A stretch of DNA of 64,000 nt from an uncultured Planctomycetia bacterium (GTDB taxonomy: Bacteria; Omnitrophota; Gorgyraeia; 2-02-FULL-51-18). Where the stretch lies: positions 166,376 to 230,375 of the forward strand of contig CAZSGP010000004.1 of NCBI GenBank assembly GCA_964606485.1, given 5' to 3'. A program made the position numbers and the translations under genes. This document shows positions 8,508 to 45,200 of this stretch, piece by piece. Under the pieces are notes generated by a model, which was not told the origin of the DNA, did no database searches, and saw only the letters and a program-made list of their open reading frames with translations. The number at the start of each line of letters is the position of its first letter. The first letter of the stretch is position 1.

Positions 8508-8512
8508 GAAGT

Positions 8513-12847: not shown

Positions 12848-12861
12848 CGGAAACTAAGTGT

Positions 12862-12950: not shown

Positions 12951-12974
12951 CGATGATAGGATGTTAAAGGAAAA

Positions 12975-16087: not shown

Positions 16088-16094
16088 GAAAGTA

Positions 16095-16287
16095 CCCTGC
16101 GGTGCGCGTGGATCACGGGCGACTATTTTCGGATCCAATACATATCAACTTGGGGGCTAACGTTTAAAGCCTGTGTGCGGCCTGCTCTTCGGAGTAGGAT
16201 TCTAGCCTAATGGCTCTGACAGGTCCCCACCCTTATTCATAGGGTTCAGAAAAATCGCTACGGCACGGCACAGGCGGGGCTTTTTAA
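16095..16287 (+). ncRNA. candidate small structured RNA or long structured 5' leader of rarA
   Basis: ~190-nt GC-rich non-coding stretch downstream of a strong promoter; contains a UUCG-capped hairpin (ctgctc-ttcg-gagtag) and imperfectly complementary ends (ccctgcggtgcgcgtgg / ccacggcacaggcgggg); no match by eye to tmRNA, RNase P or tRNA. Confidence 0.25.
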
Positions 16288-17442: not shown

Positions 17443-17470
17443 TTTCCTGTTATCCTATCATCGGTATTTT

Positions 17471-19300: not shown

Positions 19301-19308
19301 AGGGGTTT

Positions 19309-23500: not shown

Positions 23501-23708
23501 ACTCCGTCCGATTCTCATGACGGCGTTTTCGTCGGCCATTGGTCTTGCGCCGCTGGCACTCGGGATCGGCGAGGGTGCCGAGCTTCAAGCTCCGATGGCT
23601 GTTGCGGTGATGGGTGGAATTTTAATGGCGACGTTTTTAACTCTAGTCGTGACACCGGCGCTTTATATCGGAACCGAAGAGATCGCAGCAAAATTTAGGA
23701 AAAAGTGA
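20505..23708 (+). CDS. RND efflux permease (AcrB/HAE1-like), 1067 aa
   Basis: 12-TM RND architecture with two large periplasmic loops; conserved TM4 region GVGMLLDNAVVVIENVYR. Confidence 0.9.
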   Translation: MSLPSLSIKRPITTMMVYVGVFLFGIISLNLLSQELFPPISYPQLSIVTPYENAAPEEIETLITKPIEEAVGGISGLRKITSNSKEGLSLVVVEFGWNQNMDFASLSIREKIDLIKERLPRDAQEPVVVKFNPFDLPVMSLSIASSERTPVELRELARRWFKDEIEKLHGVASASISGGAEEQILVDVDQSKLRGAGVSIVQVSDAIGAANLNFPGGTIKENFYEYLVRTLGEFKHVDEIGQIPLRSEQSKSSEDPRLAQLRAKEPSNRLVLLRDVAQINRTVKDRTSFSRFNAVENVTLAVQKQAQANTIHVSQAIRKKLKELETRLPKDIKVDVVYDQSKFINDALNGVKDAALQGGLLAFLVLVLFLRDFKNSALVVTITPVTVLATYTLMYFMGISLNVISLGGVALGVGMLLDNAVVVIENVYRKFRENPKDGMQQAAIVGSEEVMAPMWASTLTTVSVFLPIVFVTGIAGQIFKELAWVVVVTQVISAIIAFTLLPMLIAKVGEKSSLSKRDIHEQGGAIVGKSALENTLETLSAPIRWIESAYAKILPGFIERKWFYLLIVFGMFVVSLFVLINTDKVLLPKVDQGQFMLKLDMPVGTRVEHTNAITQKVEKFLLAFPEVHSVSAVVGSSRGDATKEVLERLGAHQSQVVVSLKEKRERPTDEIVQEVRKHFELSQGRADIFPGRLSYVLYDSAFKVGGDSDAPLVVDIKGPRLDELQRLSVLTQQKIEAIEGVYGVTNSIAESFPETKIIIDKDRASYYQLSVVTIAQAANIAIKGITASKFKEEGREIDIRVQLHESDRDKFEKLGNLVVRSPLDLDVPLSDFVKFKRGKGPSEIKRVSQERTVQIYAKVYGRGLEEAVAETQKVINSLKVPDRYSVKIAGESEEVKESFASLQFAFTLSVILVYMIMAAQFESLWQPFLIMFCLPLSLIGVAIALAISHTPMSVVVILGIILLAGIVVNNGIILIDFVNSLRAQGMPLKDAAILAGKTRLRPILMTAFSSAIGLAPLALGIGEGAELQAPMAVAVMGGILMATFLTLVVTPALYIGTEEIAAKFRKK

Positions 23709-26700
23709 ATCTTCCCGAAATTTCGATAAGAAAACCCGTCACGGTTCTTATGGTGACGCTGATCGTTATTCTCTTTGGGCTTGTGAGTTTAAGCAAGCTC
23801 CCCGTCGAGCTTTACCCCAACACGTCTTTCGGTGAAATCAGCATTATTATCCAAGCCCGTGGCGGCATTCCTCCGACTGAAGTCGAAAGTTTAATTTCCA
23901 AGCCCGTCGAGGAAGCGGTTTCCACGGTGAGTAATTTGGAACAGCTCATGTCGATTTCTAAAGAAGGTGAATCGACCGTCGTCCTCAGTTTTAAATCTGG
24001 AACCGACATGGATTTTGCCGCACTCGAAGTGCGCGAAAAATTCGCCAAAATTAAAAATAAACTTCCCAAAGAAATTGAAAAGCCGGTGATCGCGCAATTT
24101 CAACAGGGTGACGTGCCGGTTTACATTTTAGCGATGACAAGTGAAAAGCGCACCACTGAAGACTTGCGCAAAATCGTGGACGACTCGTTCAAAGAAGTTT
24201 TAAAACGTGTTCCAGGCGTGGCAAACGTAGAAGTTGCCGGTGGACGTGAGCGAAAAATTTTAGTCGACGTGGATCAGACGAAGCTTGCGTCATACGGCAT
24301 TCCAATTGATCAAGTGACAGGCGTTTTGGGGTCAAACAATTTAAATCTGCTGTCAGGTGAGGTGGAACAGAAAGAAGACCGGTACTTGATCCGCGTGATG
24401 GGCGAATTTGAATCGGTGGATCAAATTAAAAATATGGGAATCCAACGCGATGCGTCGGGTTCGATTATCCGCGTGAAGGACGTAGCCGCGGTGAAAGACT
24501 CGTATCTGGAACCGCAGGAGTACTCACGGCTCAACACGAAGCCGGTCGTGACGATTTACGTGCAAAAAGAAAGCACGAAAAATACGATCACCGTGACGCA
24601 CGATCTGACGCGGGCGATTGACGAATATAAAGTGAAGCTACCGGCGGATATTCAACTTGTGGTCACGTCGAACCAGTCCGAGTCCATCGTGAAGGCCATT
24701 GATAATTTAAAAGAGACTCTTCTTCAGGGCGTGGCGCTTATTATCCTCACGTTCTTTTTATTTTTATTTCGCTTAAAGCCCGCGCAATACGTAGGGATCG
24801 GGCTACTCATCATATTCGCAATTTTTGCAAAGGGGATTTTGCTCGACGTTTTATTTTTTGGGCTACTCGCGTCCCTGCTACTCGTGAAGCGCTTTCGCTC
24901 CATCATTATCGTGACCTTGCCGATTCCGGTGTCGGTCATCGCAACGTTTATTTTCATGCGCTTTCAAGGACTCACCGTAAACGTCATGACGCTGTTTGGA
25001 CTGGTGCTCGGCATGGTGATCTTGGTCGATAATTCCATTGTGGTATTTGAAAATATTTTGAAGAAGCGGGAAGACGGAAACGAAATTGTGTTGAGCGCTG
25101 TAAAAGGCAGTAACGAAATGTTTATGGTGATTCTCGCGTCAACGGTGGTGATTGTCATTGTGTTTATTCCTCTCATGTTCATGGGACAGGAATTGCAAAA
25201 ATTGTATTCCGGCATGGCCGCGACCATTGTGATTTCGCTCTTGGCGTCATCGGTTTGTGCGCTGTCGCTTGTCCCGATGATGTGTTCAAAACCCGCTTTT
25301 TCGAAGTACTTGCTTGAAGAAGAAAGAAAAGATCCTTCGGCCCATCAAAAAGATGATGAACCTCAGGATGGCAAATGGTCCGTCATTCTGAGCGCAGCGA
25401 AGAATCTTTTCTCAAAAATAAGACTGCTCTCGAAGGCTAAATGGGTTGAGCGTCTACGAGCTTCTCGAGCGTATGTGGTTATAACTGGGCTTACGCCTGA
25501 GCGCTTTGTGCACTACGAGCGGCGCTTTCTTTTTAAGACCATCCGCTTTCGAAAAATGGCAATTTGGGTGTGTGCCGGGATTGTGCTGCTGCCGATTTTT
25601 TTTCTGTCTCGCATGGGTCAGGAATACTTAGGAAGCACCGAGCAGAATAAATTCACTGCGTTTGTCGAGCTTCCCACCGGTGCCAAGCTTGACGCTTCCG
25701 ACAAAGTGGTCAAAAAAGTGGAAGCCGTTATTAAAAAAGTCCCGGAGGTAAAAACCGTCACGTCGCGCATTGAGCCGTGGTCATCCAAAGTGTATGTCGA
25801 GCTTGTTGAAGCCAGAAAACGTCGCCGGTCTGCCAATGACATTATCGAATCGCTTCGCAAAGAAACCGACAAACTTCACCCCGCCTTTATTTACTTTCAA
25901 CAAGAAGAGCAGGTTGGAACCAAAGAAGTCATCCTCGAAATTTTTGGGTTTGATTATGAAAAATTAAGAGAGCTCGCCATCGCCATCGCGAACCGCCTTC
26001 AGTCAGTGAAGGGGTTGTCCGACACGAAAATTCGCATGCGCGAAGGTCGTCCCGAAATGCAGCTACTCATTCAAAAGAAAAAAGCGGGTTTAAGCGAGCT
26101 GACCGTCAGCGAAGTGGCCAATCAAGTGCACGGGCAAATGCGAGGTTTACGCGCGACTGTGTTTCACACCGAGGGAAAAGAAGTTGAAACCATTTCAAGA
26201 CTCGACGAAAAATACCGCAAAACATTTAAGGACTTGCACCGACTCATTATTACTTCTAAAGAGGGTGATTTTGTTTTGCTGGATCAAGTCAGTGATTTTA
26301 AATTTGGTCTAGGACCCAGCGAAATATGGCGTAAAGATAAAAATCGCGTGATTCAAGTGAGTGCCAATATTGGAAAAGTAGCGCTGAGTAAAGTTGTCCA
26401 AGATATCACGAAGAGTTTAAAATCAGTCCCATTCCCAGAAAATTATTTTTGGCGTGTCGCAGGAGATTACCCGACGCTTATTCGCACAAGCCGGCAAATG
26501 CGGCTCATGATTGCCTTTGTGCTCATTCTTGTTTTCTTGGTGCTCGCCTCGCTTTTTGAATCACTGTATCAACCCTTTCTTATTATGATTGCCGTTCCAC
26601 TTGCTTTGTGTGGCGCTACCGCGGCGCTGTACTTTGGTCCAAAGTCGATAGGCGTGGGGGCCTTGTTTGGAATGATGATGCTCGTGGGGATTGTGGTCAA

Positions 26701-27058
26701 CCACTCCATCATGCTGATTGACCGCATTAATTTTTATGTTAATGAGAAAAAATACTCAGCTATAAAAGCGGCCGTACTCGCCAACAAGGACCGATTGAGA
26801 CCCATCTTAATGACGCTTTTTTGCTCGGTTTTAGGGCTCATTCCTATGGCCATTGATAAGTCAGAAGGCGCTAACCTATGGTCACCACTGGCCTTAACAG
26901 TGATTGGAGGGGTAGTTAGTTCAACTTTGCTTACACTGATGGTGACACCCGCATTTTATGTGCTGTTTCAGGACATGATTCACACTAAATGGTCGATAAA
27001 GGGTGCCATAAGAAAAATTGTTAGTGCACAAAAAACTAAGAATAATGTTAGCTTATAA
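23705..27058 (+). CDS. second RND efflux permease (1117 aa) with extended TM6-TM7 cytoplasmic linker
   Basis: Paralogue of the upstream gene (LVLGMVILVDNSIVVFENI); ~100-aa charged linker between TM6 and TM7; start overlaps the upstream stop (aaGTGAat). Confidence 0.88.
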   Translation: MNLPEISIRKPVTVLMVTLIVILFGLVSLSKLPVELYPNTSFGEISIIIQARGGIPPTEVESLISKPVEEAVSTVSNLEQLMSISKEGESTVVLSFKSGTDMDFAALEVREKFAKIKNKLPKEIEKPVIAQFQQGDVPVYILAMTSEKRTTEDLRKIVDDSFKEVLKRVPGVANVEVAGGRERKILVDVDQTKLASYGIPIDQVTGVLGSNNLNLLSGEVEQKEDRYLIRVMGEFESVDQIKNMGIQRDASGSIIRVKDVAAVKDSYLEPQEYSRLNTKPVVTIYVQKESTKNTITVTHDLTRAIDEYKVKLPADIQLVVTSNQSESIVKAIDNLKETLLQGVALIILTFFLFLFRLKPAQYVGIGLLIIFAIFAKGILLDVLFFGLLASLLLVKRFRSIIIVTLPIPVSVIATFIFMRFQGLTVNVMTLFGLVLGMVILVDNSIVVFENILKKREDGNEIVLSAVKGSNEMFMVILASTVVIVIVFIPLMFMGQELQKLYSGMAATIVISLLASSVCALSLVPMMCSKPAFSKYLLEEERKDPSAHQKDDEPQDGKWSVILSAAKNLFSKIRLLSKAKWVERLRASRAYVVITGLTPERFVHYERRFLFKTIRFRKMAIWVCAGIVLLPIFFLSRMGQEYLGSTEQNKFTAFVELPTGAKLDASDKVVKKVEAVIKKVPEVKTVTSRIEPWSSKVYVELVEARKRRRSANDIIESLRKETDKLHPAFIYFQQEEQVGTKEVILEIFGFDYEKLRELAIAIANRLQSVKGLSDTKIRMREGRPEMQLLIQKKKAGLSELTVSEVANQVHGQMRGLRATVFHTEGKEVETISRLDEKYRKTFKDLHRLIITSKEGDFVLLDQVSDFKFGLGPSEIWRKDKNRVIQVSANIGKVALSKVVQDITKSLKSVPFPENYFWRVAGDYPTLIRTSRQMRLMIAFVLILVFLVLASLFESLYQPFLIMIAVPLALCGATAALYFGPKSIGVGALFGMMMLVGIVVNHSIMLIDRINFYVNEKKYSAIKAAVLANKDRLRPILMTLFCSVLGLIPMAIDKSEGANLWSPLALTVIGGVVSSTLLTLMVTPAFYVLFQDMIHTKWSIKGAIRKIVSAQKTKNNVSL

Positions 27059-27242: not shown

Positions 27243-30200
27243 ATGCAAAATGAGTCCATGAAATTAAAACCGTACAAAAGCCGCTGGTCGTGGCAGTTCA
27301 AATCAGTATCCGTACTGATCATCGGCACTTTTTTACTCCATGACTTAGCCTGGGGCGTGGATTCTGATTATTTAAGAAAAAATAAAGAACGCGATTCCGG
27401 CAATCTCTTCCTTCCTTCCTATCTTCAGAAAGCCAATAACGATCAACTTGAACGCATGAAAGCGCGCGAAGATTTGAACTTACTCTTCCAGTCCCTGCGC
27501 AGTGACGAATTCACCAAACAGCTTCGCTCGAAATCGCCCAAGTTTGAATCTCACGGCGAGGAAGATCGCAAGCCCGCGGCAGGCGGCAGCGGTAAGGGCG
27601 GCGGCGCATTCAATTATATGGTCACCTTCAATGAAGGCCGTCAGCCGGCCGAGCTTCAAGTTTTTGACCGCGCGAGTGACGGCTCTATCAATGCGACTTA
27701 TGTTTATCAGATTAATGGAAAAGACATCTCAAGTTTAACGCGTGATGCGGTGACTCAAACCACCAAAGATGGCGCGACCATTCGCGGTGGAAGCAAGAAA
27801 ATTGATCCGAAAGGCGCGGCAAGCCAATTGGAACTTGCAACCGTCATTCACTACGCTCAAGGAAAAAATTCGAAGGGCGAACGCTTTGTCGATTATGTGG
27901 AAAGCGCATTTGAAAATGGGAAATCCACGATGGTGCAAATGCATGAGCGTAGTAGCTCCGGGTTTTTAACCGGCGTTCAAACGTTTGATGTGAAAGATTC
28001 CGGGCTCGACACCGCGACAAATGCGTTTAAGACTCAGCTCTCCACCAATAACCTGATTCGCAGCGAAGTTTATGACGGCTCGGAAAAAGAACATTTACTG
28101 TATGCGTTTAGCGATTATGCGCTAGATGCGAACAACGTTGTGCGTCCCAATTCGTTTGAAGTGGCAAATTACGACGCGGCAGGAGTGCTTGAGTCCAAAA
28201 AAAGTTATGACATCAGTAGCTACGATCCCTCCAGTGCCGCGTGGACACAAATTCAAGCGGACTTGAGAGCGGGCGGTGTGGGCTATGAAAAAGATCTGCG
28301 TTCGGAGACCACGTTTACGGGTGCCGAAGATAACCGCGTTGAAGATCAAGTCTTTACTTATAAGGATGGCGAGATAATCGAGCGGCAGGATTTTGAATAC
28401 CGTAGTTTCAAAGATGCCAATACGGGCAAGACTCGCCTGGCGCTGGTCTCTAGCTTTTCGTTTGATGTCGATGACGCGACGCTTTCCGTAGGCGACCGCC
28501 GCAAGAAATCGTCCGGCCAAATTTTAGATCCCAATGGAGACCCAATCCCTGCCAATTTCACCGGCACGTTAAAAACGCAGAATGTTTTTGAGAACGGACA
28601 AGTGTCGCAGGTGTTTAGTTTTGGAATCGATGACAGCGGAAAATATTTTGTCGAAAGCCGCACGGATCATATCGTGGATTCGCTGGGCGCAAGAAAATCC
28701 TACATCTTTGATACGACTGGTTTATCGACGCGTGATGCTCGCCAAAAAATGAGCGGCGATCTTGTGATGGACGCTGCGGGAAATGTGATCAAAGGAATCT
28801 TTACCGGCGAATTGGTGAACGAAACGGTTTTAGAAATCTCTCGTGGTCAAGAGCGGGCCGCACTGCAATTGCTTTATGAGAAAGACGCGGCCGGCCGCTA
28901 CAGCCAAACTGAGCGACTCGATTTTAGTTACAGTCCGAGCGGCAAACTACTCGATACGGTTTCATACGACATCTCAGACTTATCCTTGGCTGACGGACGC
29001 CTTCGCGGAACGGGCGAGCAGGTGTCGCGTTCATTTTTTTCAGGGGTTGATCAGCAAATTCAGCGCATCGATTCGACGGGAGATATTGCGGTGGCGGACT
29101 TAGGGTCTAACACGCCGGTCGATCCGCGGGACATGGCAAGCGACCCCGGCGCGGTGGTGGTGTACGAAACCGGACATACGGGTGATCGGAATTTCATTAA
29201 ATCCATTTCTTTTACAGGCGGAATCAATTATCAATTTGAATACGACGCGGCTCACAACTTAGCCAGTGTTTATTTTTCTAGAAGCGGCGTTGCGTCAAAC
29301 GCCAACCACTTGGTGCGTTATGCGTACAGTGCCCTAAGCGGACAGTCGGTTTTAGATTTGGTGGCGACGACGAATCATTTAACCGTGCGCTACGCCTACC
29401 AAAATGGCCGCGTGATTTCGACCTCACAATTTGAAGACGCCAACGCCGACGGTATTTTAGACCCGACCGAAAGTGTGCGAAACGTCACCTACTACGATCT
29501 GAACGACTCGAGCGGCCGCAAAGTGTTGTTGTCGCGGCAGTATGTGGGCGGAACCACTTTTGCGCAAGTGCAAGGGGATCTACTGGCCACGATAACGGAT
29601 GCGACGAAGGTGAAGACGGAGAGTGTGTTTACGTATCAGGCGGCAGAGCCGGACCGCATCAATTTTATTACAACCTTTATGGGAGTAGCGTCGAGCGGAT
29701 TTGAGTTGTCTCGCAGTTTTAATTCAAATGACACTCAAAATCATGTGATGTACACCGAGCAATATGCGGGAGGGGACCCTAACCAAGTTCGGATGACGAG
29801 CTTCAACAATTATTCAGGCGGACGGGTGGAGTCGACGGTACAGATTCAGGGGAAAGTGGATTTTAGTAATGCGGTTGTCTCGGCGGCTCTTCAAGGAGAC
29901 CGCGTCATTAATGAGCAGGAAATCTTGGGAATTGCTGGGGCAGTTTCCTTTACGCAAAACTCTGGGATCAAGGGTTCTGAAAAAACAGATTTTGTTAGAA
30001 ACATTTCCGCGGGGCATTACACGACGCGCCAAACGTACCGCTACGATGTAGATTTGGACAGCGGACTTGATGAAATTACGACGCTCCGGGAAGACGGTTC
30101 GGTCGCGCTTAAAAATTTCTTTGTGGGATTTAGCGGAGAAGAAACGGCGGACTATTCTTATGCATACGCCAATGACGGCGTGACGGTTCGCAGTGTATCG

Positions 30201-33200
30201 GTTAATTTTTATGGGGGCAATCTTCGCGCGCAGAACGCGGCGTCAAAAGATGCCATGGTTCGCTCTGAGAGTTACGAGGTTTCGGAACTTTCTTTGATTT
30301 CAACAGCCGTTCGCCGAAGTGCAACCGTTTTTGCAGGAGCTCGCGGCGAGGAAGTGGCTGATTATTCCACGAGCTTCGCGCAAGACGGCACCACCGTTCG
30401 CAATATCAGCGTCAACTTTTACCAGGGCAATCTACGCGCTGCTAACGCTTCAACGAGTGACGCGCTGTCCCGTTCGGATTCTCATGACGCGAGTGACATT
30501 TCGCAAGTGACAACGGCCAATCGCAGAGCGTCCACTTTTTTTGCCGGGGAACGTGGAGAGGAAATTCCCGACTATACTTATGGTTATGCGCCGGACGGCA
30601 CCACGGTCCGAAATGTTTCCGTTAATTTTTACGATGGAAATGTGAGAGCGCAAAACGCCACGACACGCCAAGCACTGGTCCGCTCCGACAGTCACCAAAC
30701 TACGGATATTAGTCAGATAACGGCGACGAACCGTAAAAGTTCCACTTTCTTTGTGGGAGACAAGTCCGAAGAGATCGCAGATTACTCCACAAGTTTTGCC
30801 GCAGACGGTGTCACAGTACGAAATATTTCGGTGAATTATTACGAGGGAAATGTCCGTGCAGCGAATGCTTCCACCGATGATGCCATGGTCCGCTCCGACA
30901 GCCATGAAACAACGGATATCGCGCAAGTATCCATCGCCAATCGCCGCAACTCTACCTTCTTTGTAGGCAAAAAGGGTGACGAGATTGCAGACTATTCCTA
31001 CGGCTATGCGAATGACGGAAACGCTGTGCGCAATGTGTCAGTCAATTTTTATACCGGAAATGTTCGTGCGACAAATGCAACGCCTAATGATGCCATGGTT
31101 CGCTCGGAAAGTTACCGGACTACCGACATTGCGCAAATCGCCACAGGAAATAGAAGTGCGGCCACTTTCTTTGTGGGCGAAAAGGGAAATGAAATCGCCG
31201 ACTATTCGTACTCGTACGCTATCGATGGCAGCACGGTTCGAAATGTCAGCGTAAATTTTTATGCTGGCGGCGTTCGGGCATCGAGCGCTTCTGTAGATGA
31301 CGCCCTGCTTCGTTCCGATAGCCATGACACTGCAGACATTGCGGCGATCACGACGGCGAATCGTAGAAGTTCTACTTTCTTTGCCGGCAATCGTGGGGAC
31401 GAGATTTCGGACTACTCTGCATCTTACGCTTCGGACGGGACTACCGTTCGAAATATCTCAGTGAATTTTTACGAGGGTGATCGTCGCGCCATTAACGCTT
31501 CAGCCGAGGACGCTCTTATTCGTTCCGATGTGCACATGGCTAACACTATTGGTCAGGTTTCACAAACTAATCGTCGCAGTTCCACTTTTTTTGCGGGAAC
31601 CCGTGGAAGCGAAATCGCTGACTACTCTTATTCGTATGCTCCAGATGGTATAGCTATAAATAGCGTCTCGATCAATTTTTATCAAGGAGATCTTCGAGCG
31701 CAAGATGCATCTGTAAATGACGCGCTAGTTCGTTCGGATGCGCACGAGACTTCCGATATTGTTCAAGCGCGTCCTGCCAATCGTAAGAGTTCTACTTTCT
31801 TTGCTGGAGCGCGAGGGGAAGAGATCGCCGATTACTCTTATAGCTATGCTCCGGATGGAGTCACTATTCGAAATGTGTCGGTAAATTTTTACGAAGGCAA
31901 TCTCAGAGCTAGTGACGCTTCTACAAATGACGCATTGGTGCAGTCGGATAGCCATGAAACCACGGACATTCTTCAAGTGGGCACCGCAAACCGCCGCAGT
32001 TCCACTTTTTTTGCGGGTGCGCAAGGGGAAGAGATCGCCGATTACTCATACGGGTATGGTGCTAACGGTACCGCGGTTCGAAATGTTTCCATTAATTTTT
32101 ACGAAGGTGACCGCCGCGCAATTGATGCTTCTTCAGAAGATAAGCTTGTTCGCTCGGATAGTCATCAAACAAGCACATTGGCTCAATCAACTCAAGCCAA
32201 CCGCCGCAGTTCCACCTTTTTTGCGGGTGCCCGGGGCCAAGAGATCGCCGATTATTCTACTTCTTATGCCAATGATGGCACTACGGTTCGGAATGTTTCG
32301 ATTAATTTTTATGAAGGCGAGCTTCGTGCGAGTGTTGCCGCATCTTCCAGCGCTCTGATTCGCTCCGACAGTTACGAAACGACGGCGGTAGGTGTGGCCT
32401 CTCTGTTTGTCCAGGATCGCCGTAGTTCCACGTTTTTTGTTGGGACTCGTGGTGAAGAAATTGCTGATTACTCCATGAGTTACGCTCCGGACGGAACCAC
32501 GGTTCGCAATGTGTCGGTAAATTTTTACGAAGGCGATGTGCGAGCGGCTAATGCTTCGGTGAATGACGCGCTGGTTCGCTCCGACAGTCATCAGGCGGCG
32601 GGGATTGGCCAAATCACGCAAGGAAATCGTAAGAGTTCTACTTTCTTCGACGGCGACCGCGGTGAAGAGATCGCAGACTATTCTTACAGCTACGCCACCG
32701 ATGGAACCACTGTGAGAAACGTCTCGGTGAATTTTTATCAAGGGGATGTGAGGGCAGATGCCGCCTCTGTTAATGATGCGCTTGTGCGTTCCGACTCGCA
32801 TCAAACGACGACTATTGCGCAAGTGTCGGGTACAAATCGCCGCGGATCGACTTTCTTTATTGGGGATAGAGGCAGTGAAATCGCCGATTACTCTTATGGA
32901 TACGCCGCTAACGGCACTACGGTTCGGAATGTTTCCGTTAATTTTTATGAGGGTGATCGTCGCGCTATTGACGCCTCGCCGGATCATGCGCTCGTTCAAT
33001 CCGATTCCCATGAAGCCTCCGACATTCTTCAGATTGCAACGGCCAATCGCCGCAGTTCGACTTTCTTTGCCGGCGACCAGGGAAGTGAAATCGCCGATTA
33101 TTCTTATAGCTACGCGAGCAATGGTTCTACAGTTCGCAATGTCTCAGTCAATTTTTACGAAGGCAATCAGCGCGCCACCAATGCCGATGTGGAGGATGCG

Positions 33201-36200
33201 CTCATTCGCTCTGACAGCCACCAAGCTTCTGTGATTGGCCAAGTGACTCAAGCTAACCGCAAGAGTTCAACTTTCTTCGCCGGCGTTCGCGGCGAAGAAA
33301 TCGCCGACTATTCTTATAGTTATGCAAATGATGGAAATACTGTTCGCAATGTGTCTGTCAATTTTTACGAAGGCGACGTGAGAGCAGCCAACGCATTGAT
33401 TAGCAATGCGCTCGCTCGGTCGGATTCTCATCAAGTAAGCAACATCGCTCAAATTTCAACGCTCAACCGGAAGAGCTCTACCTTCTTTTCAGGTACACGC
33501 GGCGAAGAAATCGCCGACTATTCCTATAGCTATGCACCCGACGGCACTACCGTTCGCAATGTGTCAGTGAATATTTACCAGGGCGATGTTCGTGCCACCA
33601 ACGCTTCGGTGAACGACGCGCTTCTTCGCTCCGACAGCCACCAGGCGACAGACATTGCACAGATTACAGATGCCAATCGCAAGACCTCAACATTCTTTAC
33701 CGGAACCCGCGGCGAAGAAATAGCCAACTACTCCTACGCTTATGGAAATGACGGCACCACCATCCGCACGGTATCGGTTAATTTTTACAATGGCAATCTT
33801 CGTGCTACCGATGCTTCCCCGGACGATGCCCTCGTCCGCTCCGACAGCCACCAAGCCACTGGCATTGGTCAGATTACTCAAGCAAACCGCAAGAGCTCGA
33901 CTTTCTTTGCGGGTGACCGTGGCGATGAGATCGCAGATTATTCTTATTCGTATGCTACAGATGGAATCACTGTCCGTAACGTCTCGGTGAATATTTATCA
34001 GGGCAATATTCGTGCAACGAATGCCTCAGCCGACGACGCACTGATTCGCTCAGACAGTCACGACGCTACCGATATGAGTGGAGCGACTCAAGCGAACCGC
34101 AGAAGCAGTACATTTTTTGCTGGTCTTCGCGGCGACGAGATTGCGGATTATTCCTACAGTTATGCTACGGATGGAACGACGGTGAACAGCGTCTCTATCA
34201 ATTTTTATCAAGGTGGAGTAAGGGCCGCGGCAGCTTCGGTCAATGACGCTCTGATCCGCTCCGACAGCCATCAAGCCACCGCGATTGGCCAAGTTACTCA
34301 GGGCAATCGCCGCAGCTCCACTTTCTTTACCGGAACGCGTGGAGATGAGATCGCCGATTATTCTTATAGTTATGCTACTGACGGCATCACCGTTCGCAAC
34401 GTCTCGATTAATTTTTATGAAGGCGATGTTCGGGCTATCAACGCTTCGGTGAACGACGCCCTCATCCGCTCCGACAGCCATGAAGCCACCGCCATTGGTC
34501 AAATCACCCAAGCTAACCGCCGCAGCTCCACCTTTTTTGTAGGTGTGCGCGGCGACGAGATTGCGGATTATTCCAAATCCTATGGCAATGACGGCGTCAC
34601 GGTTCGCGGAGTGTCAGTTAATTTTTACAGCGGAAATCAAAGAGCAGCAAAGGCGGCTTCCAATGACGCTCTCGTTCGCACGGACAGCCATCAAGTAACC
34701 GACATTTTACAAGTCGATCTATTAAACCGAAAAAACTCCACCTTCTTTGCCGGCATCCGCGGCGAAGAGATTGCGGACTATTCCACGAGTTACGCTCCTA
34801 ACGGCGTCACGATCCGTAATATCTCCATCAATTTTTACGAAGGCGATGTGCGAGCGGCCGATGCCTCGGTCAACAACGCGCTCATCCGTTCCGACTCACA
34901 CTTGGCAGATGCGATTGGTCAAGTCAATCAAGCTAATCGCCGCAGTTCTACATTTTTTAAAGGGGTGCGCGGCGAAGAGATTGCCGATATTTCTACTAAT
35001 TACGCACCCGACGGCATCACCGTTCGCAATGTGTCGATTAATATTTACGAAGGAGAACTTCGCGCTGAAAATGCATCCGTCAGTGACGCCTTAATTCGTT
35101 CGGATAGTTATGAAACGACGGCAGCAGGTGTGGTTTCTCTGTTTGTCACGGATCGCCGCAGTTCAACTTTCTTTACCGGAACCCGCGGCGAAGAGATTGC
35201 GAACTATTCTTATAGTTACGCCACCGACGGCGTCACGGTCCGTAACGTTTCGATTAATTTTTATCAAGGGGATGTGAGAGCGGTCGATGCCACGGTCAAC
35301 GACGCGCTTGTCCGTTCCGACAGCCACGAAACAACGGCCATTGGTGCGGTTACCGCTCAAAATAGAAGAAGCTCCACTTTCTTTGCGGGTGTGCGCGGTG
35401 AGGAAATTGCGGACTATTCTTATGGCTATGCTTCCGACGGCACGACCGTTCGCAATGTGTCGATTAATTTTTATCAAGGTTCTCTAAGAGCGGCGGTTGC
35501 CTCTGTCAATGATGCTCTGATTTATTCGGACAGCCACCAAGCGGATGGAATTTCAGCAGCGAACACTCAAAATCGAAAGAACACCACCTTTTTTGCCGGC
35601 CCTCGCGGCGAAGAAATCGCCGACTATTCCACGAGCTACGCCACGGATGGTACGACGGTTAAAAATATTTCCGTTAATTTCTATCAGGGCAATGTTCGCG
35701 CTTTGAATGCGGCTCCTAAAGATTCGCTCATTCGTTCGGACTCTCATGAGGCGGGGAGTCTTGGCGCGGTAAATATTCAAAACCGCACAAGCTCCACTTT
35801 TTTCGCCGGCATTCGCGGCGAAGAGATTGCCGATTATTCCACGAGCTACGCTCCGGACGGCACTACGATTCGCACGGTCTCCGTCAACATTTATCGAGGT
35901 GATCTGCGTGCCAAGGATGCCTCTGTGAGCGACGCGCTGATTCGTTCAGACAGTCATCAGACTACGGATATTCTTCAAATTTCAAATAGCAATCGCAAGA
36001 GTTCGACCTTTTTCGCCGGCTCTCGTGGCGAAGAAATCGCGGATTATTCCTACAGTTACGCTGCGAATGGCACCACGGTTCGCAATGTTTCAATCAACTT
36101 TTATCAAGGCGATCTGAGAGCGGCGGCGGCTTCGGTGAATGATGCGCTGATCCGCTCGGATAGCCATGAAACGTCGGCTATAGGCGCGGCTACTACTCAA

Positions 36201-39200
36201 AATAGAAGAAGCTCCACCTTTTTTGCCGGTGTCCGTGGAGAGGAAATTGCCGATTACTCCTATTCTTATGCCACCGACGGAATTACTATTCGCAACGTCT
36301 CGGTGAATATTTACGAGGGAGACTTGCGCGCGGAGGATGCTTCCACCACCACCACGCTTGTTCGCTCCGATAGCCATCAAACAGACGATATTCTAAAGGT
36401 TGCGACAACAAACCGCCGCAGCTCAACTTTTTTTGCGGGAGACCGGGGAAATGAAATTGCGGATTATTCCACTAGCTATGCTGCCAATGGAACGACGGTC
36501 CGCAATGTCTCCATTAATTTTTATCAAGGCGACCGGAGAGCCAATCTTGCTTCGTTAGACGACGCTTTGGTCCGCTCCGATTCGCACGAAGTTTCGGATA
36601 TTGCTCAGATTGCGGTTACGAATCGTAAAAGTTCCACTTTCTTTGCGGGTCTTCGCGGCGAAGAAATCGCCGATTATTCCTACAGTTATGCTAAAGATGG
36701 AGCCACGGTTAAAAATGTCTCCGTCAATTTTTACCAAGGGGATGTTCGCGCATCCAACGCTTCGGTCAACGACGTTCTTCTTCGCTCCGATAGTCACGAA
36801 GCAGGCTCTATCCAAGCTGTTGGAGTCCAAAACCGCAAAAGTTCCACATTCTTTACCGGAAACAGGGGAGACGAAATTGCAAACTACTCTACAAGTTTTG
36901 CCGCCGACGGCGTCACCGTTCGAAATATCTCCGTTAATTTTTATCAAGGCAATGTTCGATCCGCTCAAGCCACTTCGAACGATGCGCTGATCCGCTCCGA
37001 TTCGCACGAAGTTTCGGATATTGCTCAAATTACCCCAGCTAATCGCAAGAGCGCTACGTTTTTTGCAGGCAAGCGTGGTGAAGAGATTGCGGACTACTCT
37101 TATAGTTATGCTCCGGACGGAACGACGGTTCGCAATGTCTCAGTGAATATTTATCAAGGCGATCTCCGCGCCAAAGACGCTTCGGTGAACGACGCCCTCA
37201 TCCGCTCCGACAGCCATCAAGTCACTGACATTGGCCAAATCGCTCAAGCTAACCGTCGTAATTCCACGTTCTTTTTCGGTTCCCGCGGCGAAGAAATCGC
37301 CGACTACTCTTACGCTTATGGAAACGACGGAGTTATTGTTCGAAATGTAAGCGTAAATATCTATCAGGGGAATGTTCGCGCAATGAACGCATCTTCCAGT
37401 GACGCGCTCCTTCGCTCTGACTCTCACGAAGCTGGCGAAATTCTTCAAGTGAGTGACGCGAATCGTAAAAGTTCAACGTTCTTTACCGGCTCTCGCGGCG
37501 AAGAAATCGCCGACTATTCCTATGGATACGCCAAGGACGGCTTGACGGTCAAAAATGTTTCCGTGAACTTCTACCAAGGCGACAAGCGCGCCATTGATGC
37601 TTCCGTAAACGACGCGCTTCTTCGCTCCGACAGCCACCAAGCGAAGAGCTTAGGCGAAGCGATTCAAGCTAACCGCAAAAGCTCCACCTTCTTTGTGGGC
37701 GCTCGCGGCGAAGAAATCGCCGACACGAGTGTCAGTTACGCCAAAGACGGTGTTACAAGCCGCAGCATATCCATTAATTACTATCAAGGTGATATTCGTG
37801 CTGTGAATGCTTCGGTTAATGATGCTCTCGTACGTTCAGATAATTTTGAAGCATCCGGAACAGGGGCTATTTCACTACTTCTACAGAATCGCCGCAGTTC
37901 TACTTTCTTTACCGGCACCCGCGGTGAAGAAATCGCCGACTATTCCTATAGCTATGCACCCGACGGCACTACCGTTCGCAATGTGTCAGTGAATATTTAC
38001 CAGGGCGATGTTCGTGCCACCAACGCTTCGGTGAACGACGCGCTTCTTCGCTCCGACAGCCACCAGGCCACTGCCATTGGTCAAGTCACTCAAGCCAATC
38101 GCCGCAATTCCACCTTCTTCGTAGGAGGTCGCGGCGCAGAAATTTCGGATTATAGTGCTAGTTACGGAAGTGACGGGGTTACGATTCGTTCGATTGCACT
38201 CAATTTCTATGAAGGAAACCATCGCGCTATGGATGCGACATCGGATGATGCACTGGTTCGCTCGGACAACCACGAAGCAACCGCTATCGGACTCGTGTCA
38301 CAAGCCAATCGTCGCGGTAGCACCTATTTTGCCGGCGTCCGTGGCGAAGAAATCGCCGATTTTTCTTATGGTTACGGGTCGGATGGTAACACGGTCAAAA
38401 ATGTCTCGGTTAATTTTTACCAGGGCTCTTTGAGGGCGGCAGACGCTTCAGCGAATGATGCCCTAATTTACTCGGATTCTCACGAAGCAGCCGATATTTC
38501 TAGAGTTGGCACTTCGAATCGCAAAAGCTCCACTTTTTTTGCAGGGCCTCGCGGGGATGAAATCGCTGATTATTCGTATTCATATGATAAAGACGGCACC
38601 ACGGTAAAAAATGTTTCGATCAATTTTTATCAAGGCGATCTTCGAGCCCAAGACGCTTCGTCTAACGACGCGCTGATTCGTTCAGACAGTCACGAGACTA
38701 CTAGCGTTACTTCGGTCAACATGTCGAATCGCAAAAGCTCCACGTATTTCGCCGGTTCCCGCAGTCAGGAAATCGCTGACTATTCCTATAGCTATGCCAC
38801 TGACGGCACCACGGTAAAAAATGTTTCCATCAACTTCTACCAAGGCGACAAGCGCGCCATTGATGCTTCCGTAAACGACGCGCTCCTTCGCTCCGACAGC
38901 CATCAAACAACGGATTATACTTTGGCGGCGTTTTCCAACCGCCGTAGCTCCACTTTTTTTGCCGGAGACCGTGGAAATGAAATTGCAGATTATTCTTATA
39001 GCTACGCTGGCAATGGCACCACCGTTCGCAATGTCTCTATCAACTTCTACCTTGGAGGTTTGCGCGCGGTCGATGCCTCTTTTGACGAAGCCCTCATCCG
39101 CTCCGACAGCCACCAAGCGACGGATATTACCCAAATAACCCAAGCCACCCGCCGGAGTTCTACTTTCTTTAGGGGAAATCACGGCGACGAGATCGCCGAT

Positions 39201-42200
39201 TATTCTTATGCGTACGGCAATGATGGCACTACGGTTCGCAATGTGAGCGTCAATTATTACACCGGAAATCTTCGCGCCGCAAACGCTTCAGCGAACGATG
39301 CTTTGCTTCGTTCGGATTCGCATCAGGTCACTGACATTGCGCAGGTGGATGTGACTAATCGAAAATCCTCAACCTTTTTTGTGGGAGCAAAGGGCGACGA
39401 GATCGCCGATTACTCCGTAAGTTTTGCTAAGGATGGGACCACCGCTAAAAATGTTTCTCTTAATTTTTATGAAGGAAATGTTCGCGCTTCGAATGCTTCG
39501 GTGAATGACGCGCTCATTCGCTCTGATAGCTACGAAACGACAGCGACGGGAGTGGCATCACTTCTCATTACGAGCCGGCGCAGTTCAACCTTTTTTACCG
39601 GCACCCGTGGAGACGAAGTCGCGGATTATTCTTATTCGTATAACAATGACGGCGTGACGGTTCGAAATGTAAGCGTAAATTTCTATACGGGCAATGCTCG
39701 TGCGTCTAACGCGGCCGCGAGCGACGCACTGCTTCGCTCGGATAGCCATCAAACTACCGATATTTCACAAATTGCGACGACCAATCGAAAAAATTCGACA
39801 TTTTTTGCAGGTCCACGCGGGGAGGAAATCGCGGATTATTCTTACTCCTATGCTACAGACGGAAGCACGGTTAAAAATGTCTCAGTCAATTTTTACCAAG
39901 GTGATATTCGCGCCTCAAACGCTTCGGTGAACGACGCACTCGTCCGCTCCGACAGCCACCAAGCCACTGCTATTGGCCAAATCACTCAGGCCAATCGCCG
40001 CAATTCCACATTCTTTTTCGGTGTCCGCGGCGACGAAATCGCAGACTATTCGTATGGTTACGGTTCCGATGGCAGTTCTGTTCGCAATGTTTCAATAAAT
40101 TTTTATCAGGGGAATCTGAGGGCCGCTTTAGCTTCGTCTACGGATGCAATGGTTCACACGGATAGTCACCAAACCACTGACATTACGTTGGCGGCGCTCG
40201 CCAATCGCAAGAGCACGACGTTCTTTGCCGGCGCCCGCGGCGACGAAACCGCAGATTATTCTTATGCGTACGGAACCGACGGCACCACGGTCCGCAACGT
40301 TTCAGTCAATTTCTACGAAGGCGACGTCCGCGCATCCAACGCCTCTGCCAACGATGCCCTGCTCCGCTCGGACTCTCACCAAACAACAGATATTTCTCTA
40401 ATCACCACTACCAATCGCAAAAGCTCCAATTATTTTGTGGGCTCTCGCGGCGATGAAATTGCGGATTATGCCTACAGTTATGCGGCCGATGGTATCACGG
40501 TTAAAAATGTTTCTGTGAATTTCTACCAAGGAAATGTGAGAGCGGCAGTCGCCTCTGCCAATGCCGGCATGAACCGCAATGACGCCATGATCCGCTCCGA
40601 TAGTCACGAAACTACGGCGATCGCTTCGGTTTCTGTCGCCAATCGTCGCTCGTCTACCTTTTTTGCCGGACCCCGCAGTGAGGAAATCGCCGACTACTCT
40701 TATTCGTACGCCACCGACGGAGCCACTGTTAAAAACGTGTCCGTAAATTATTATCAGGGAAATGTGCGGGCGACCGTCGCATCCACCAATGATGCCTTAA
40801 TGCGTTCGGATTCGCACCAAGCGACGGATATCGCTCAGATTGCGCAGTTAAACCGAAAAAGCTCTACATTCTTTGCGGGCTCTCGCGGCGATGAGATTGC
40901 AGATTATTCCTACGCTTATGGAAATGATGGCGCCACCGTCAAAAATGTTTCCGTGAATTTCTACGAAGGTAATCTCCGCGCGACAAACGCTACGCCTAAT
41001 GACGCCATGATCCGTTCGGATTCTCACCAAACCACTGACATCGCTCAAATCGCCGTAGGAAACCGCCGCAGCTCGACCTTCTTCGTGGGCTCTCGCGGTG
41101 ATGAAATTGCGGATTACAGTTATGCATACGGCACTAACGGTACGACGGTACGGAATGTTTCCATTAATTTTTATACCGGAAACGTTCGCGCGGTAAATGC
41201 GTCTATAAACAATGCGATGGTCCGCACCGACAGTCATCAGACCGCTAGCCTTGCTCAAGTGGCCACGGCCAACCGCAGAAACTCAACCTTTTTTGTGGGT
41301 CCTCGCGGCGACGAGATCGCCGATTATTCCTATAGCTATGCCAAGGATGGCGCCACGGTTCGAAACGTTTCGGTGAACACTTATCAGGGCAATGTGAGAG
41401 CCAGCGTCGCTTCTTCGAATGACGCGCTTGTTCGCTCCGACAGCCATCAAACCACAAGCATTTCTCAGATTTCTACCGCGAACCGCCGCTCAACCACTTT
41501 CTTTACCGGTACGCGGGGTGACGAGCTTTCGGATTATTCGCATTCGTACGGAACAGATGGCACAACGGTAGTGGCCTCAACCCTATTTATCCGCGATGCG
41601 GCCAACGCATTGGTCGAATCGGTGAATTATTCGAACAAGATTACGAGGGATATTTCAAAAAATGTAGTGGATGCCCTTAATTCCGCAACCGCTCTGATTG
41701 AAACTAGCCGCGACTATTGGAAAGGCTCTCAGGGTTTTGAAGTCCGCGATCTCTCCGCTTTTTATTCTTACGATGATTCTGGAAATAAATCCATCGATCG
41801 CACGCAAATTTATTATTATTTCATCGATGACAATGACAATAATCAGATTGATGCCACCGATGGCAACGGGCAATTAGACGCAGGCGAGCCGTCAGGCAAG
41901 CGCGCACATGAAGTCACGCCCGACGATCTTGAAATGGGTTCGCGGACTTATGTCGGTGATCTGACGTATTTCCAAACCGTACGCACCATTTTAGGGCGCG
42001 ATACTCTGGGTCGCGTAACCAGTTACCGTGAAGAAGGCCGCGACCAGAGCGGAACATTCTTTTCAGAAAACCGTTCGGACATTACTTATATCGGCGACAC
42101 CGAAAATACGTTTAGCTTTAAAGCGACTCGCCGCGACGGGGAAATCACTTCCCATTTTGAAATGCGCAACATGGTTTACGATGAGCGCAACCGTTTGCGT

Positions 42201-45200
42201 TCTTCCGAGCGCGTGGACGTGGAACCGGCGACCGGTTCGGCAGATACAATGCTCGACCGCGTGATGGTGACAAAGACAATCAACGATTATGATTCGCAAC
42301 CGGGCTTTGTGGTGGTGACTTCGAACTCCTACGGAATTTCCGCGCAAGGAACGCTTTCAACTTCTAATTCGCAAACGAAATTCAAGCTCACCGGTGACGC
42401 GTTTACTCAGCCGTTATTTATTTCAGGTTCCAATACCGATTATCATTTAGTAGAAGATAACGGAAACGTCTTCAACCTAAGAAGCTTGCTCACCTCCGGA
42501 AGCCAAAACTCTCCAGCGCTCAGCGACGGGTTTGGATTGCTCGACGGCTACGACACAGCGGCTGCAAACGGCGGCAACTGGTTTGGATTTTTAACCGCTG
42601 ACCCCAATCCCGGCACACGCAATTTAACGCTGAACGGATTAACAATCCGCGTGGGCTCGGTGAGCGGGGTTGAAACTGTTTCTCAAACGTATAGCGCCGA
42701 TGGAAATCCGGATCGACAGGTCGAGCGCTTCTTCACAGGAACAGGTGCCGGAAAAATTGTGAACACCACTCGTGAAACGGTGAATCACTACGTCTCACCG
42801 CAACCGGCAAGCCGCCTGACGCAACTCGGGTTGCCATCTGGGTTTAAAATTATCGGTGATCGCATGACGACGGATTTTTATGATTCGAGCGCACAGGCCA
42901 AGTCCGTGAACACGGTGGTGTTTAAAACCACTGGCATTGATAATCCCGTTACGGCGCCGTCTCTCATGGAATCCAATCGCACGGTAACGTTCTTAACAGA
43001 CGGCACGACGCAATCCACCGAAAATCATACTTACACTTATAAAGCCTACGCCAATCGTGGCGCCGCTGTTTCCACCGACGCCGATTTAAAACCTTTTGAT
43101 GTGCACCATGAAATTACACAGGAAATCATCGAACGTTCACCGACGGGGGCTGTGTTTAACGCCGGTGACCAGGCTAATCAAAAACAAACTATAAATTACG
43201 CACGCGACGCGATTGGAAACTTAATGTTCACCGATCGCATGAATGACAACGACCCCTCGTCGCGCAGTGTGGAATTTGCAGGGATGGACGCGGATATTAT
43301 GAATGCCGCCTCGGAAATTTTAGACGCTCAGCATGTGCAGATCAGCGGCAATGGCGGCACGCAATCCATCACCGATGCTTTTGGAAATCGTATGGAGTAT
43401 GACGCGCAAGGCGCGCCAAATCAGTACATTGAAGCCAGCGGCAACGTACTCTTAACCGCCAATCTTTCTGCAGTGATGACGGACACCGATCCGCTGTTTC
43501 AAAATTACCGCTACACCATCACTGAAAATTTAGGAAATGGCCTCACGCGTTCGTTTTCGTACGGATTAAATAATCCTTCCGAAGCACAAGCGGTTTTCGA
43601 GCGTTACGCGCAGTTTGCGGCGAATTGGAAATGGAATAACGCAAGCACGTCGAGAGTTTATTCCGGAGCGGATACGAGTCTTTCGGGTTATTCGATTCAT
43701 TACAATCCCTCTGGTTTTCCGGATAAAATTCTCAATGGGTCCAATGCGATCAATACGGTTCAATTTCTTGCCGGAACCGGAACTGAAACTACGGCGTTTG
43801 CAACACCTCTATCCGCCACTCCCGCATCTTCGTTATCTCCCGGAGCATTTCGATTAGTGGTGAATAACAGAACTTTACTTTATGGAACGCTACCCATGGT
43901 GAGTGTGAATACGTCTAATAACGTCACAAGCCGAGTGGTCACTGACCCCGGTTTCGATTGGGAAGTGGAATTCATGATGATGGCGCAGTTCACGATTAAA
44001 AATTTTGGTTTTAGCACAGGCAGCTTTGCCGGAAATGGTGTGGGAGCCGCCGTGAGTCTTACGGGTGTAACGCAAAACGGAACAAATATTATTCAGGGTA
44101 CTTTCTTAAATTCTCAAAATCAATTACAGGTGACAGATTCACGAAGTGGGGAGACGTTTACGGTTTCAACGGCGAGTGTGAACGGACAAGCGGATCTTGC
44201 ACGGCAACTGGCCATGGCCGCACTTGGTTCCGGAACTCAAACCACGTGGAACGGTTCGCGGGCCACCGGCCGCGCTGGAAATATTTATTACGCTGCGGAT
44301 TTTGACACGGCTTCCGCAATTCCATCCAATCTCGCCACCACGATTTATCGCACGGACGCGTCGCGCACACAAAATCAGGGAGCTTTGTTTAATATTGAGC
44401 GCATCAACACTGCCGGTGCAGACCCCACCAAAACTTTGGTGAAACTCACGAGTCTCGCAGATCACACAGTCACCTACATTTCTTACGATCAATTTGGTCA
44501 GCGGGAAATGATTCTGCGGCTTAAAAATGGAACGAATATTTCCCAGTTTGTGGCAAATGGAGAGGCATCCCTCAGCCAAGCTTCGGTTCAGGATTCGCTT
44601 AAGACACTCGCAACTTCCAATACTTTCGAAAGTGTCGAGTTTAATCAAAATATTCGCCATGACAATGGATTTGCGCAAATCATTCGCCAAGGATTCCAGA
44701 GCGCGCTCGATTCCAACATCACGCGGCTCGATTCGAACGGCAATGCGCTGACGGGTGTCACGACTTATTCGGAAAACCAAATGTTTGGGCCGTCGGGTCG
44801 CATTCTGTCATCAAGCTCCACTCGTCATGAAGTCGGAAGTGGCGTGGATTTGACGACGGTAAACAAGAGTCAGTTTTCGTACGACGCGCAGGGCAATCTG
44901 ATGGCGCAAAGCGCCCGCGAAACGCAAAACGGAACCAATGTTGGAAATAATATGTCAAATCCTTCGAACCCGACTTTTGCCATCAACAACGTTTCAAAAA
45001 TAACGGTGCTCAAAGGCGTGAAGCTCGACAGTCTCGGCCAACGCGTGACCATGGATTTTTCATCGCGTCAATCCGGACAAGGAATGCTTTCTTCGGGGCA
45101 GATGGATCCGCGTTCTTTTGGAGGCTCATTCGATCATGATCAGACCCTGATCCAAACGCTCGGAACAGTGACTCAGCCGAATGGTTTGGACGCATTTGGA

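Follow-up and report, generated by a model that had tools for sequence, protein, structure and literature searches.

A tandem array of 54 seventy-residue units in a giant Omnitrophota protein, predicted to form an RHS-like antiparallel beta-sheet

Introduction

Omnitrophota are ultra-small, host-dependent or predatory bacteria whose giant genes are largely unannotated and are suspected of acting in contact with other cells. Two length tiers have been distinguished among their proteins, 'long' with at least 10,000 amino acids (aa) and 'giant' with at least 30,000 aa (10.1101/2023.11.21.568195; 10.64898/2026.06.07.730766), and of the long proteins 39% combine a signal peptide with transmembrane helices, while 15% are without any Pfam match (10.64898/2026.06.07.730766). 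In both subtypes of the giant proteins, Archaeovorin and Dockerin, West-Roberts et al. 2023 predicted an 'antiparallel beta helix', a hollow, tubule-like region of ~1500 aa with external helices that resembles rearrangement hotspot (RHS) proteins, and the roles proposed for these giants are prey attachment, cell-wall attack and carbohydrate binding (10.1101/2023.11.21.568195). Here we describe a window of 64,000 nucleotides (nt) from contig CAZSGP010000004.1 (assembly GCA_964606485.1, positions 166,376 to 230,375, forward strand), in which a single giant open reading frame (ORF) encodes 54 tandem units of 70 aa.

An earlier reading of the sequence, made without database searches and referred to below as the original prediction, presented these units as an undescribed family. 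This is true at the database level only: no curated family covers the unit, whereas the kind of object to which the array belongs, a giant protein with RHS-like beta regions, has already been predicted for Omnitrophota (10.1101/2023.11.21.568195). We give about an even chance to the interpretation developed here, in which the array is a rigid RHS-like beta-ribbon or tubule that serves as a stalk within the exported portion of a giant protein at the cell surface.

An old array under purifying selection

The frame that holds the array is stop-free from 27207 to beyond the 3' end of the window, amounting to 12,264 codons in a six-frame scan. Its first ATG, at 27243, is preceded by an AT-rich spacer of 185 nt, and from this start the ORF (27243-63998, + strand) encodes at least 12,252 aa before it leaves the window, which places the protein in the tier of at least 10,000 aa. 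The frame is open over 36.8 kb, the array included, and the 28 other ORFs of at least 150 aa between 30 and 47 kb are all short by-products of it, mostly on the opposite strand.

A profile hidden Markov model (HMM) built from eight units and run over the translation with hmmsearch identified 54 full units, all in frame, at aa 971-4762 (nt 30117-41492, + strand), each scoring 90-132 bits. They are followed by the first 27 residues, STTFFTGTRGDELSDYSHSYGTDGTTV, of a partial 55th unit (41493-41573, + strand; HMM domain at aa 4764-4789, 28 bits). The resulting interval, 30117-41573, is almost exactly the one proposed originally (30090-41570, with about 55 units). Alignment of the units shows that 48 of the 54 are exactly 70 aa long; the first has 68 aa, four have 72 aa and one has 76 aa. 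At the DNA level the units have diverged, and Tandem Repeats Finder therefore detects the 210-nt period in patches only.

The unit consensus reads STFFAGxRGEEIADYSYSYAxDGTTVRNVSVNFYxGxxRAxxASxNDALxRSDSHQxTxIxQxxxxNRRS. Ten positions (F4, G6, E11, G23, N32, Y34, G36, R39, A43 and R68) are invariant and 18 further positions are at least 90% conserved. Variability is concentrated in what the structural model described below shows as turns and loops (positions 5, 7, 21, 24, 35, 38, 41, 42, 45 and 59-66), while the strands are conserved. All 54 units carry D/N-G, the classic tight-hairpin turn, at positions 22-23. The motifs quoted in the original prediction hold good as a consensus, but as literal strings they are rarer than it implied: STFF[AV]G occurs in 31/54 units, G.EIADYSYSYA in 18/54, RA.NAS.NDAL in 9/54 and DGTTVRNVSVNFY.G in 4/54.

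It had also been stated that two N-x-S/T tripeptides occur in nearly every unit and might be glycosylation sites or an asparagine ladder. This is correct for the first tripeptide (N[VI]S, 46/54) and incorrect for the second (NA[ST], 20/54); the array holds 79 such sequons in total, where shuffling of the units leaves 59 +/- 6.6. Among 471 units of other proteins in the family, the same two positions carry a sequon in 10% and 1.5% of cases, a rarity that rules out either reading as a feature of the family. The N28-V-S30-V-N32 pattern falls in predicted strand 3 and is most simply explained by polar and apolar faces that alternate there.

Raw mean pairwise identities between units are alike for protein and DNA (64% and 63%), so that the claimed excess of protein over DNA conservation does not appear in these figures. 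In substance, however, it is there: the proportion of synonymous differences (pS) is 0.77, that is, saturated, against a proportion of nonsynonymous differences (pN) of 0.25, and the median ratio of nonsynonymous to synonymous substitution rates (dN/dS) is ~0.14 among pairs with finite dS. Saturated synonymous sites together with low pN imply an old, constrained array. It is thus protein-coding and under purifying selection and did not arise by recent slippage expansion, in agreement with the original view. Adjacent units are no more similar to each other than distant ones, and the little higher-order periodicity there is between units consists of weak excesses at lags 4, 2 and 13 (z 4.0, 2.6 and 2.2, respectively).

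A single trace of recent exchange was found by an exact k-mer scan with extension. Units 17 and 38, the closest pair in the array (89.5% nt identity, where the surrounding units show ~63%), share an identical tract of 143 nt at 33504-33646 and 37926-38068 (+ strand), 4.4 kb apart, which looks like a gene-conversion tract; the same scan revealed no other long exact DNA repeat in the array. Mis-assembly could in principle have altered the copy number or continuity of so repetitive a region. The public relatives of the unit are almost all fragments on short contigs, showing that such arrays break assemblies, and the 143-nt tract is itself an exact repeat. Yet this tract has distinct flanks on all four sides, so that only one linear path uses all the sequence, and elsewhere the units are only 63% identical in DNA, with no other exact repeat of assembly-relevant length. 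The 36.8-kb open frame, in which each unit is unique and consistent with selection, likewise argues against an artefact, as does the presence of a comparable array, with at least 60 units, in an independent metagenome-assembled genome (MAG). Since no two units have the same DNA sequence, we consider an assembly artefact very unlikely.

The four 72-aa variants, identified in the alignment as units 11 (32211-32426), 24 (34947-35162), 37 (37683-37898) and 45 (39369-39584), all on the + strand, share a distinct tail, ...SDS(Y/F)E...G..SL(F/L)..., and follow one another at intervals of 13, 13 and 8 units, a spacing that may mark a structural super-period such as one helix turn. The unit at 40425-40652 has a 6-aa insertion (ANAGMNRND).

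A repeat family of Omnitrophota

Pfam and NCBIfam scans, which covered the signal peptide and N-terminal region, a sample of ten units, and the stretch from the last unit to the window end, gave no credible family match in these parts of the giant ORF. The Pfam matches that were listed (EpmC, DUF3666 and XPG_N) have no significant individual stretch and represent noise summed over repeats. The original statement that the units bear no BIg, cadherin, RTX, PKD or FG-GAP signature is confirmed by these scans, and no other Pfam or NCBIfam model matched either. A sequence-profile search of the PDB with the 54-unit profile found no relative, the only match being a chance one of 22 residues (E 0.17).

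Larger protein collections do contain relatives. A word-indexed search of 5.8 billion proteins returned six short fragments related to the unit, and the profile-HMM search that had been suggested for finding related units, carried out exhaustively over 1.84 billion cluster representatives, returned 203 relatives at E<=1e-3, 38 of them at E<=1e-30. Ten of these were looked up and nine proved to be named, all nine as proteins from Candidatus Omnitrophota MAGs, annotated either as 'hypothetical protein, partial' or as TSP3- or ILEI-containing proteins. By these searches, the unit defines a family that has no curated model and is restricted to Omnitrophota.

The window itself fits this distribution. 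Its threonyl-tRNA synthetase is 77-79% identical to proteins of named Candidatus Omnitrophica MAGs, and its genes from mnmG to OEP, by way of thrS, pheST and mgsA, are arranged in the same order as in GCA_022072175.1; judged by these sequence comparisons, the window is encoded in an Omnitrophota genome.

Family-wide, the conserved core consists of G9, E11, D14, Y15, Y19, Y34, R39, A40 and A43, which corresponds to a profile core of G-x-E-x-A-D-Y-x-x-x-Y ... Y-x-x-x-x-R-A-x-x-A, and in the relatives the spacing of units ranges from ~56 to 92 aa. The units described here are closer to one another (64%) than to those of any other array (47% at best), and some other arrays are more homogeneous still (84-89% between units). 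This greater similarity within than between arrays indicates that the family expands or homogenises within lineages.

The comparable array mentioned above lies on contig CAZNEE010000003.1 (261 kb; locus L001), where an ORF fragment of at least 6,559 aa contains 60 or more units of 72 aa. A metagenome scan for units gave two loci, one of which seems to be this same array, since it agrees in the length of the locus, in where the match lies and in the 54% identity. By blastp, the giant ORF outside its repeats had no match to the giant ORFs of the repeat-carrying loci L001-L005, and the array behaves as a module common to otherwise unrelated giant proteins. The MAG of CAZNEE010000003.1 is labelled Planctomycetia, and nearly all named carriers of the repeat are Omnitrophota. 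On the same contig and strand, ~43 kb upstream of the array, another fully open frame of 12 kb carries weaker units; the two frames may be parts of a single ORF longer than 25,000 aa or represent two neighbouring giant genes. Ga0180432_10000025 is a further locus noted alongside this contig.

Predicted fold of the array

We modelled six consecutive units with AlphaFold2 (AF2), using other six-unit windows of the same array as the alignment. [quoted passage not shown] In this model each unit forms four antiparallel strands, at positions 68-5 (..RRS-STFFA), 12-19 (IADYSYSY), 26-34 (VRNVSVNFY) and 49-55 (LVRSDSH), which are connected by tight turns at 6-11 (G-x-R-G-E) and 20-25 (x-D/N-G-x) and by two longer, variable loops with three-residue helical turns. 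Strands cross the unit borders, and the units are therefore not separate domains. The small beta-sandwich originally suggested for the unit does not fit this picture; the confidently modelled local fold is a continuous antiparallel meander that passes from unit to unit.

A Foldseek search with the AlphaFold model, another of the original suggestions, placed Rhs, teneurin or Tc shells in the top five positions (E 1.8e-7 to 1.9e-5), with weaker matches to OspA, TCP and MORN chains. The top neighbours include YenB-YenC2 (4igl), Rhs effectors (8qjd, 8cp6, 7pq5) and teneurins (7ban, 6fay). Their global shape, however, does not superpose on that of the six-unit model (TM-score 0.13-0.16). Strong local matches combined with a low global score imply that the likeness to RHS shells is local, residing in the hairpin meander and twisted sheet, and not global.

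RHS shells are built of tyrosine-aspartate (YD) repeats of ~21 aa with the profile GxxxRYxYDxxGRL[IT]. The RHS/YD models PF05593 (RHS_repeat) and TIGR01643 (YD_repeat_2x) found nothing in the array or its flanks at E<=0.1 (Pfam) or E<=1 (NCBIfam), and an HMM derived from the YD repeats of E. coli K-12 RhsA had no match in the array, although it gave two weak matches 3' of the array and none in shuffled controls. Aligning the unit profile with the YD profile by hhalign gave a probability of 1.9% (P=0.025), with DYSYSYAPDGTTVR aligned on EIRYRYDSDGRVTE. The Rhs-core motif DPxG[LWIV] is absent from the visible 12,264 aa, where no Rhs-core model matched either.

These results bear directly on the possibility that the array is a genuine RHS/YD cocoon, a closed shell with an Rhs-associated core (PxxxxDPxGL) and aspartyl autoproteolysis, which encloses a C-terminal toxin and delivers it, after the manner of Tc toxins and the Rhs effectors of type VI secretion systems. 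The identity of the best structural neighbours speaks for a cocoon, as do the few YD-like motifs that flank the array. We nevertheless regard it as highly improbable, given that the family models, the RhsA-derived HMM and hhalign are all negative for the array, that the DPxGL motif is missing, and that the global TM-scores are low. Moreover, the array extends over ~3,800 aa with a near-perfect period, whereas known shells comprise ~700-1,500 aa of irregular repeats, and what lies 3' of the array in the window, which does not include the 3' end of the gene, is not a toxin but clusters of transmembrane-like segments.

Several observations weigh against the meander. An AF2 run on 17 units (1,192 aa) did not reproduce it: the five models reached pLDDT 73, 46, 46, 28 and 25, and the best of them, almost entirely beta-structured, was segmented differently, into about six strands for each unit. 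As PDB neighbours it has only right-handed parallel beta-helices (PL6 alginate lyases, Ag43, SepA and tailspikes), none of them significant (E 0.2-4, probability <=0.02). The alignment behind the six-unit model consists of paralogous units of one protein, and for repeats AF2 has a known tendency to predict regular folds too often, including confident but unrealistic beta-solenoids (PMC11795689). Finally, mean-field direct coupling analysis (DCA) of 406 and 181 family units gave no anti-diagonal signal and left the hairpin registers unconfirmed, in a test that was underpowered (effective number of sequences, Neff, 135-324) and whose signal was dominated by gaps and conserved columns; with too few independent sequences, DCA did not settle the choice between hairpins and a solenoid.

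A parallel beta-solenoid fibre, in which each 70-aa unit would be one in-register rung of a rod of ~26 nm with Tyr, Asn and Ser ladders, is the form that the 17-unit model resembles, and ladders of this kind would be in keeping with the invariant Asn, Tyr and Gly at set positions. A solenoid rung-pair had been among the original suggestions, but solenoid-like structure appears in the unreliable 17-unit model only, where four of five models collapsed (pLDDT 25-46), and the alignment for that run was partly staggered, MAFFT having shifted 13 of 38 rows onto identical residues. In-register stacking would also align E11, D14, R39 and R68 into ladders of like charge, Pfam contains no matching autotransporter passenger or pectate-lyase repeat, and the six-unit run gave the antiparallel meander in five models of five. 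Because of the tendency of AF2 towards unrealistic solenoids and the staggered alignment, we give the six-unit result more weight than the 17-unit one and view a parallel solenoid as possible but unlikely.

Layout of the giant protein and a proposed role

The ORF begins with a probable Sec signal peptide, MQNESMKLKPYKSRWSWQFKSVSVLIIGTFLLHDLAWG (27243-27356, + strand), recognised by reading the sequence and by a hydrophobicity scan: basic residues are followed by SVSVLIIGTFLL and then HDLAWG, giving a basic n-region, a 12-residue hydrophobic core and an A-W-G cleavage-like site at which the signal peptide may be removed. Next comes a region of ~920 aa without transmembrane segments (27357-30116, + strand). 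This region is an orphan: a search of 5.8 billion proteins with a 953-aa query gave no homologue at E<=1e-3, Pfam gave no match, and the unit HMM matches only at chance level. It contains scattered YD-like motifs such as FEYDAAHNL and YRYD.

Beyond the array, ~1,990 aa rich in Thr, Ser, Gly and Asn and again devoid of transmembrane segments (41574-47546, + strand) include one degenerate unit (...FYSYDDSGN...; 41715-41858; family HMM E 0.006) and, in a regular-expression scan, a few YD-like motifs (MRYDSQGRL, RYDTLGRLISS and FSYDAQGNL). Two transmembrane-like clusters follow on the + strand, the first with about seven segments (47559-49148; aa 6785-7314) and the second, Gly/Ala/Ser-rich, with about five (57369-58514; aa 10055-10436), separated by a soluble part of 2,700 aa. 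They were delineated by a Kyte-Doolittle scan (19-residue window, mean >=1.6), which is not a trained predictor. No hydrophobic segment occurs for ~6,730 residues after the signal-like segment, a span made up of the 920-aa orphan region, the 3,820-aa array and the 1,990-aa region. From the second cluster to the window end (63998) the protein continues as a long Ala/Ser/Leu/Glu/Arg/Lys-rich region without family match, cut by the window end.

With its signal-like segment and two clusters totalling ~12 hydrophobic segments by hydropathy scan, the protein shows features of the Omnitrophota giants. In our preferred reading the array is a region of the type described by West-Roberts et al. The array would then be the central module of an exported N-terminal part of ~6,700 aa, reaching from the signal peptide to the first transmembrane cluster. 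Each unit would contribute four antiparallel strands, and strand 4 would pair with strand 1 of the next unit, a pairing that would make the 54 units one uninterrupted sheet of ~216 strands. By coiling, such a ribbon would probably give a rigid rod or a hollow tubule, in line with predictions for other giant proteins of Omnitrophota. Residues conserved as Tyr, Phe, Val, Glu, Asp, Arg and Gly would build the sheet and its turns, and the variable loops would form its exposed edges. The role that we propose for this structure is that of a stalk or spacer, which may hold the ~920-aa N-terminal region, as a putative distal 'head', off the membrane anchor and towards a host or prey cell.

The geometry of these forms suggests bounds on the length of the array. 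A flat ribbon of 216 strands at 0.48 nm each would measure ~103 nm, a coiled tubule, depending on radius and pitch, a few tens of nm, and a solenoid of 54 rungs at 0.48 nm ~26 nm. The fibre of 100-200 nm expected originally thus lies at or above the upper of these bounds.

Two other functions deserve consideration. In the first, the array would be a multivalent adhesin that binds a host polymer, such as a cell-wall glycan or S-layer, along its whole length through Tyr15/17/19 or a Ser/Asn-rich face. The aromatic triplet of D-Y-x-Y-x-Y is strictly conserved, Ser and Asn alternate in strands 2-4, D14, Y15, Y19 and Y34 are conserved family-wide, and the literature proposes attachment and carbohydrate-binding roles for Omnitrophota giants (10.1101/2023.11.21.568195). 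On the other hand, neither Pfam, NCBIfam nor the PDB profile search detected similarity to a carbohydrate-binding module or lectin family, the conserved aromatics could equally form a buried sheet face under the loops, and the concentration of variability in the loops is a scaffold-like pattern. We therefore hold ligand binding along the array to be rather improbable.

The second is that the ~216-strand sheet winds into a hollow nanotube that acts as a conduit or piercing device between the ultra-small Omnitrophota cell and its host, and not as a passive spacer. This we rate as a long shot. If true, the array would be the longest regular beta-ribbon known and the protein a new class of one-polypeptide organelle for cell-cell contact.

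Genomic context

The genes immediately upstream of the giant ORF (17369-27058, + strand) encode, according to Pfam, an outer-membrane factor (OEP), a HlyD-type adaptor and two AcrB-type resistance-nodulation-division (RND) pumps; the Pfam model matched the second AcrB-like protein in three separate stretches. The order from thrS to mgsA and OEP is also found in GCA_022072175.1, where OEP lies at the end of the stretch compared. The RND efflux genes appear to be conserved neighbours of the giant gene and are reported as context only.

Further upstream, a block of housekeeping genes on one strand (228-16053, + strand) comprises mnmG, parA, parB, ndk, yicC, gmk, coaBC (as two ORFs), thrS, infC, pheS and pheT. 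In a related MAG, rpmH-rnpA-yidD-yidC lies just upstream of the corresponding block. The block is origin-proximal, and the giant gene therefore lies ~27 kb from the likely replication origin region. A 6S (SsrS) RNA gene (16091-16284, + strand; RF00013, 58.9 bits) has a coiled-coil-like ORF (15055-16053) on one side and the mgsA-like AAA+ gene on the other. Genes for tRNA-Cys(GCA), tRNA-Leu(TAA) and tRNA-Val(GAC) occupy 7348-7988 (+ strand). The first two are overlapped by an ORF at 7308-7856 with a GIY-YIG domain in its C-terminal half, and its true start is therefore placed downstream of 7520.

Comparison with known systems

Taken alone, the array reveals no new mechanism. Its value lies in its high regularity and clear limits, which make it a clean example of the 'dark' beta-repeat material of Omnitrophota giant proteins, one that is tractable for testing whether such regions form RHS-like tubules. 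In addition, the unit profile could seed a curated family model with which hundreds of fragmentary metagenomic proteins might be annotated.

Other elongated beta spacers built from repeats include the stalks of fibrillar adhesins, the central sheet of OspA, the CPAP/TCP domain and MORN sheets, and the tip-stalk-anchor layout proposed here is also that of fibrillar adhesins. The sheets of OspA, CPAP/TCP and MORN, however, have no sequence relation to the array and are short, from tens to ~200 residues, and classical adhesin stalks consist of folded domains strung like beads, in contrast to the six-unit model. Parallel beta-solenoid passengers (Ag43, SepA, Fap2) and pectate-lyase-like helices are likewise long surface rods built from repeats; unlike these passengers, the array comes without an autotransporter barrel or a Pfam passenger repeat, and the six-unit model is antiparallel.

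A further comparison is with the published Omnitrophota giants, which belong to the same phylum and combine great length with a signal peptide, many transmembrane segments and a near-absence of annotation. Like their 'antiparallel beta helix', the array is modelled as a long, RHS-like antiparallel sheet with short external helical turns, and the 70-aa family also occurs in Omnitrophota proteins with TSP3 or ILEI, hallmarks of the Dockerin type. The likeness to the published examples is one of description only, and the array is longer, ~3,800 aa against ~1500 aa for the published tubules. The visible 12,264 aa also differ from both subtypes in that Pfam detected neither the SecA DEAD domain of Archaeovorin nor the dockerin, EF-hand or TSP3 domains of the Dockerin type.

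With RHS/YD shells the array shares a continuous antiparallel sheet of tandem beta-hairpins, as modelled, and an aromatic-x-aromatic...D/N-G turn motif, which in the degenerate unit flanking the array reads FYSYDDSGN. It differs in the unit, 70 aa with four strands and two long loops compared with a hairpin of ~21 aa, and in its regularity, with 54 near-perfectly periodic copies; no plug, Rhs core, autoprotease or toxin was seen in the visible part. The array looks RHS-like in architecture but is by sequence not a member of RHS/YD, and a distant common origin with RHS/YD repeats is plausible. It shows how, on the predicted fold, an RHS-like hairpin architecture can take the regular form of a 70-aa super-repeat that has been multiplied more than 50 times.

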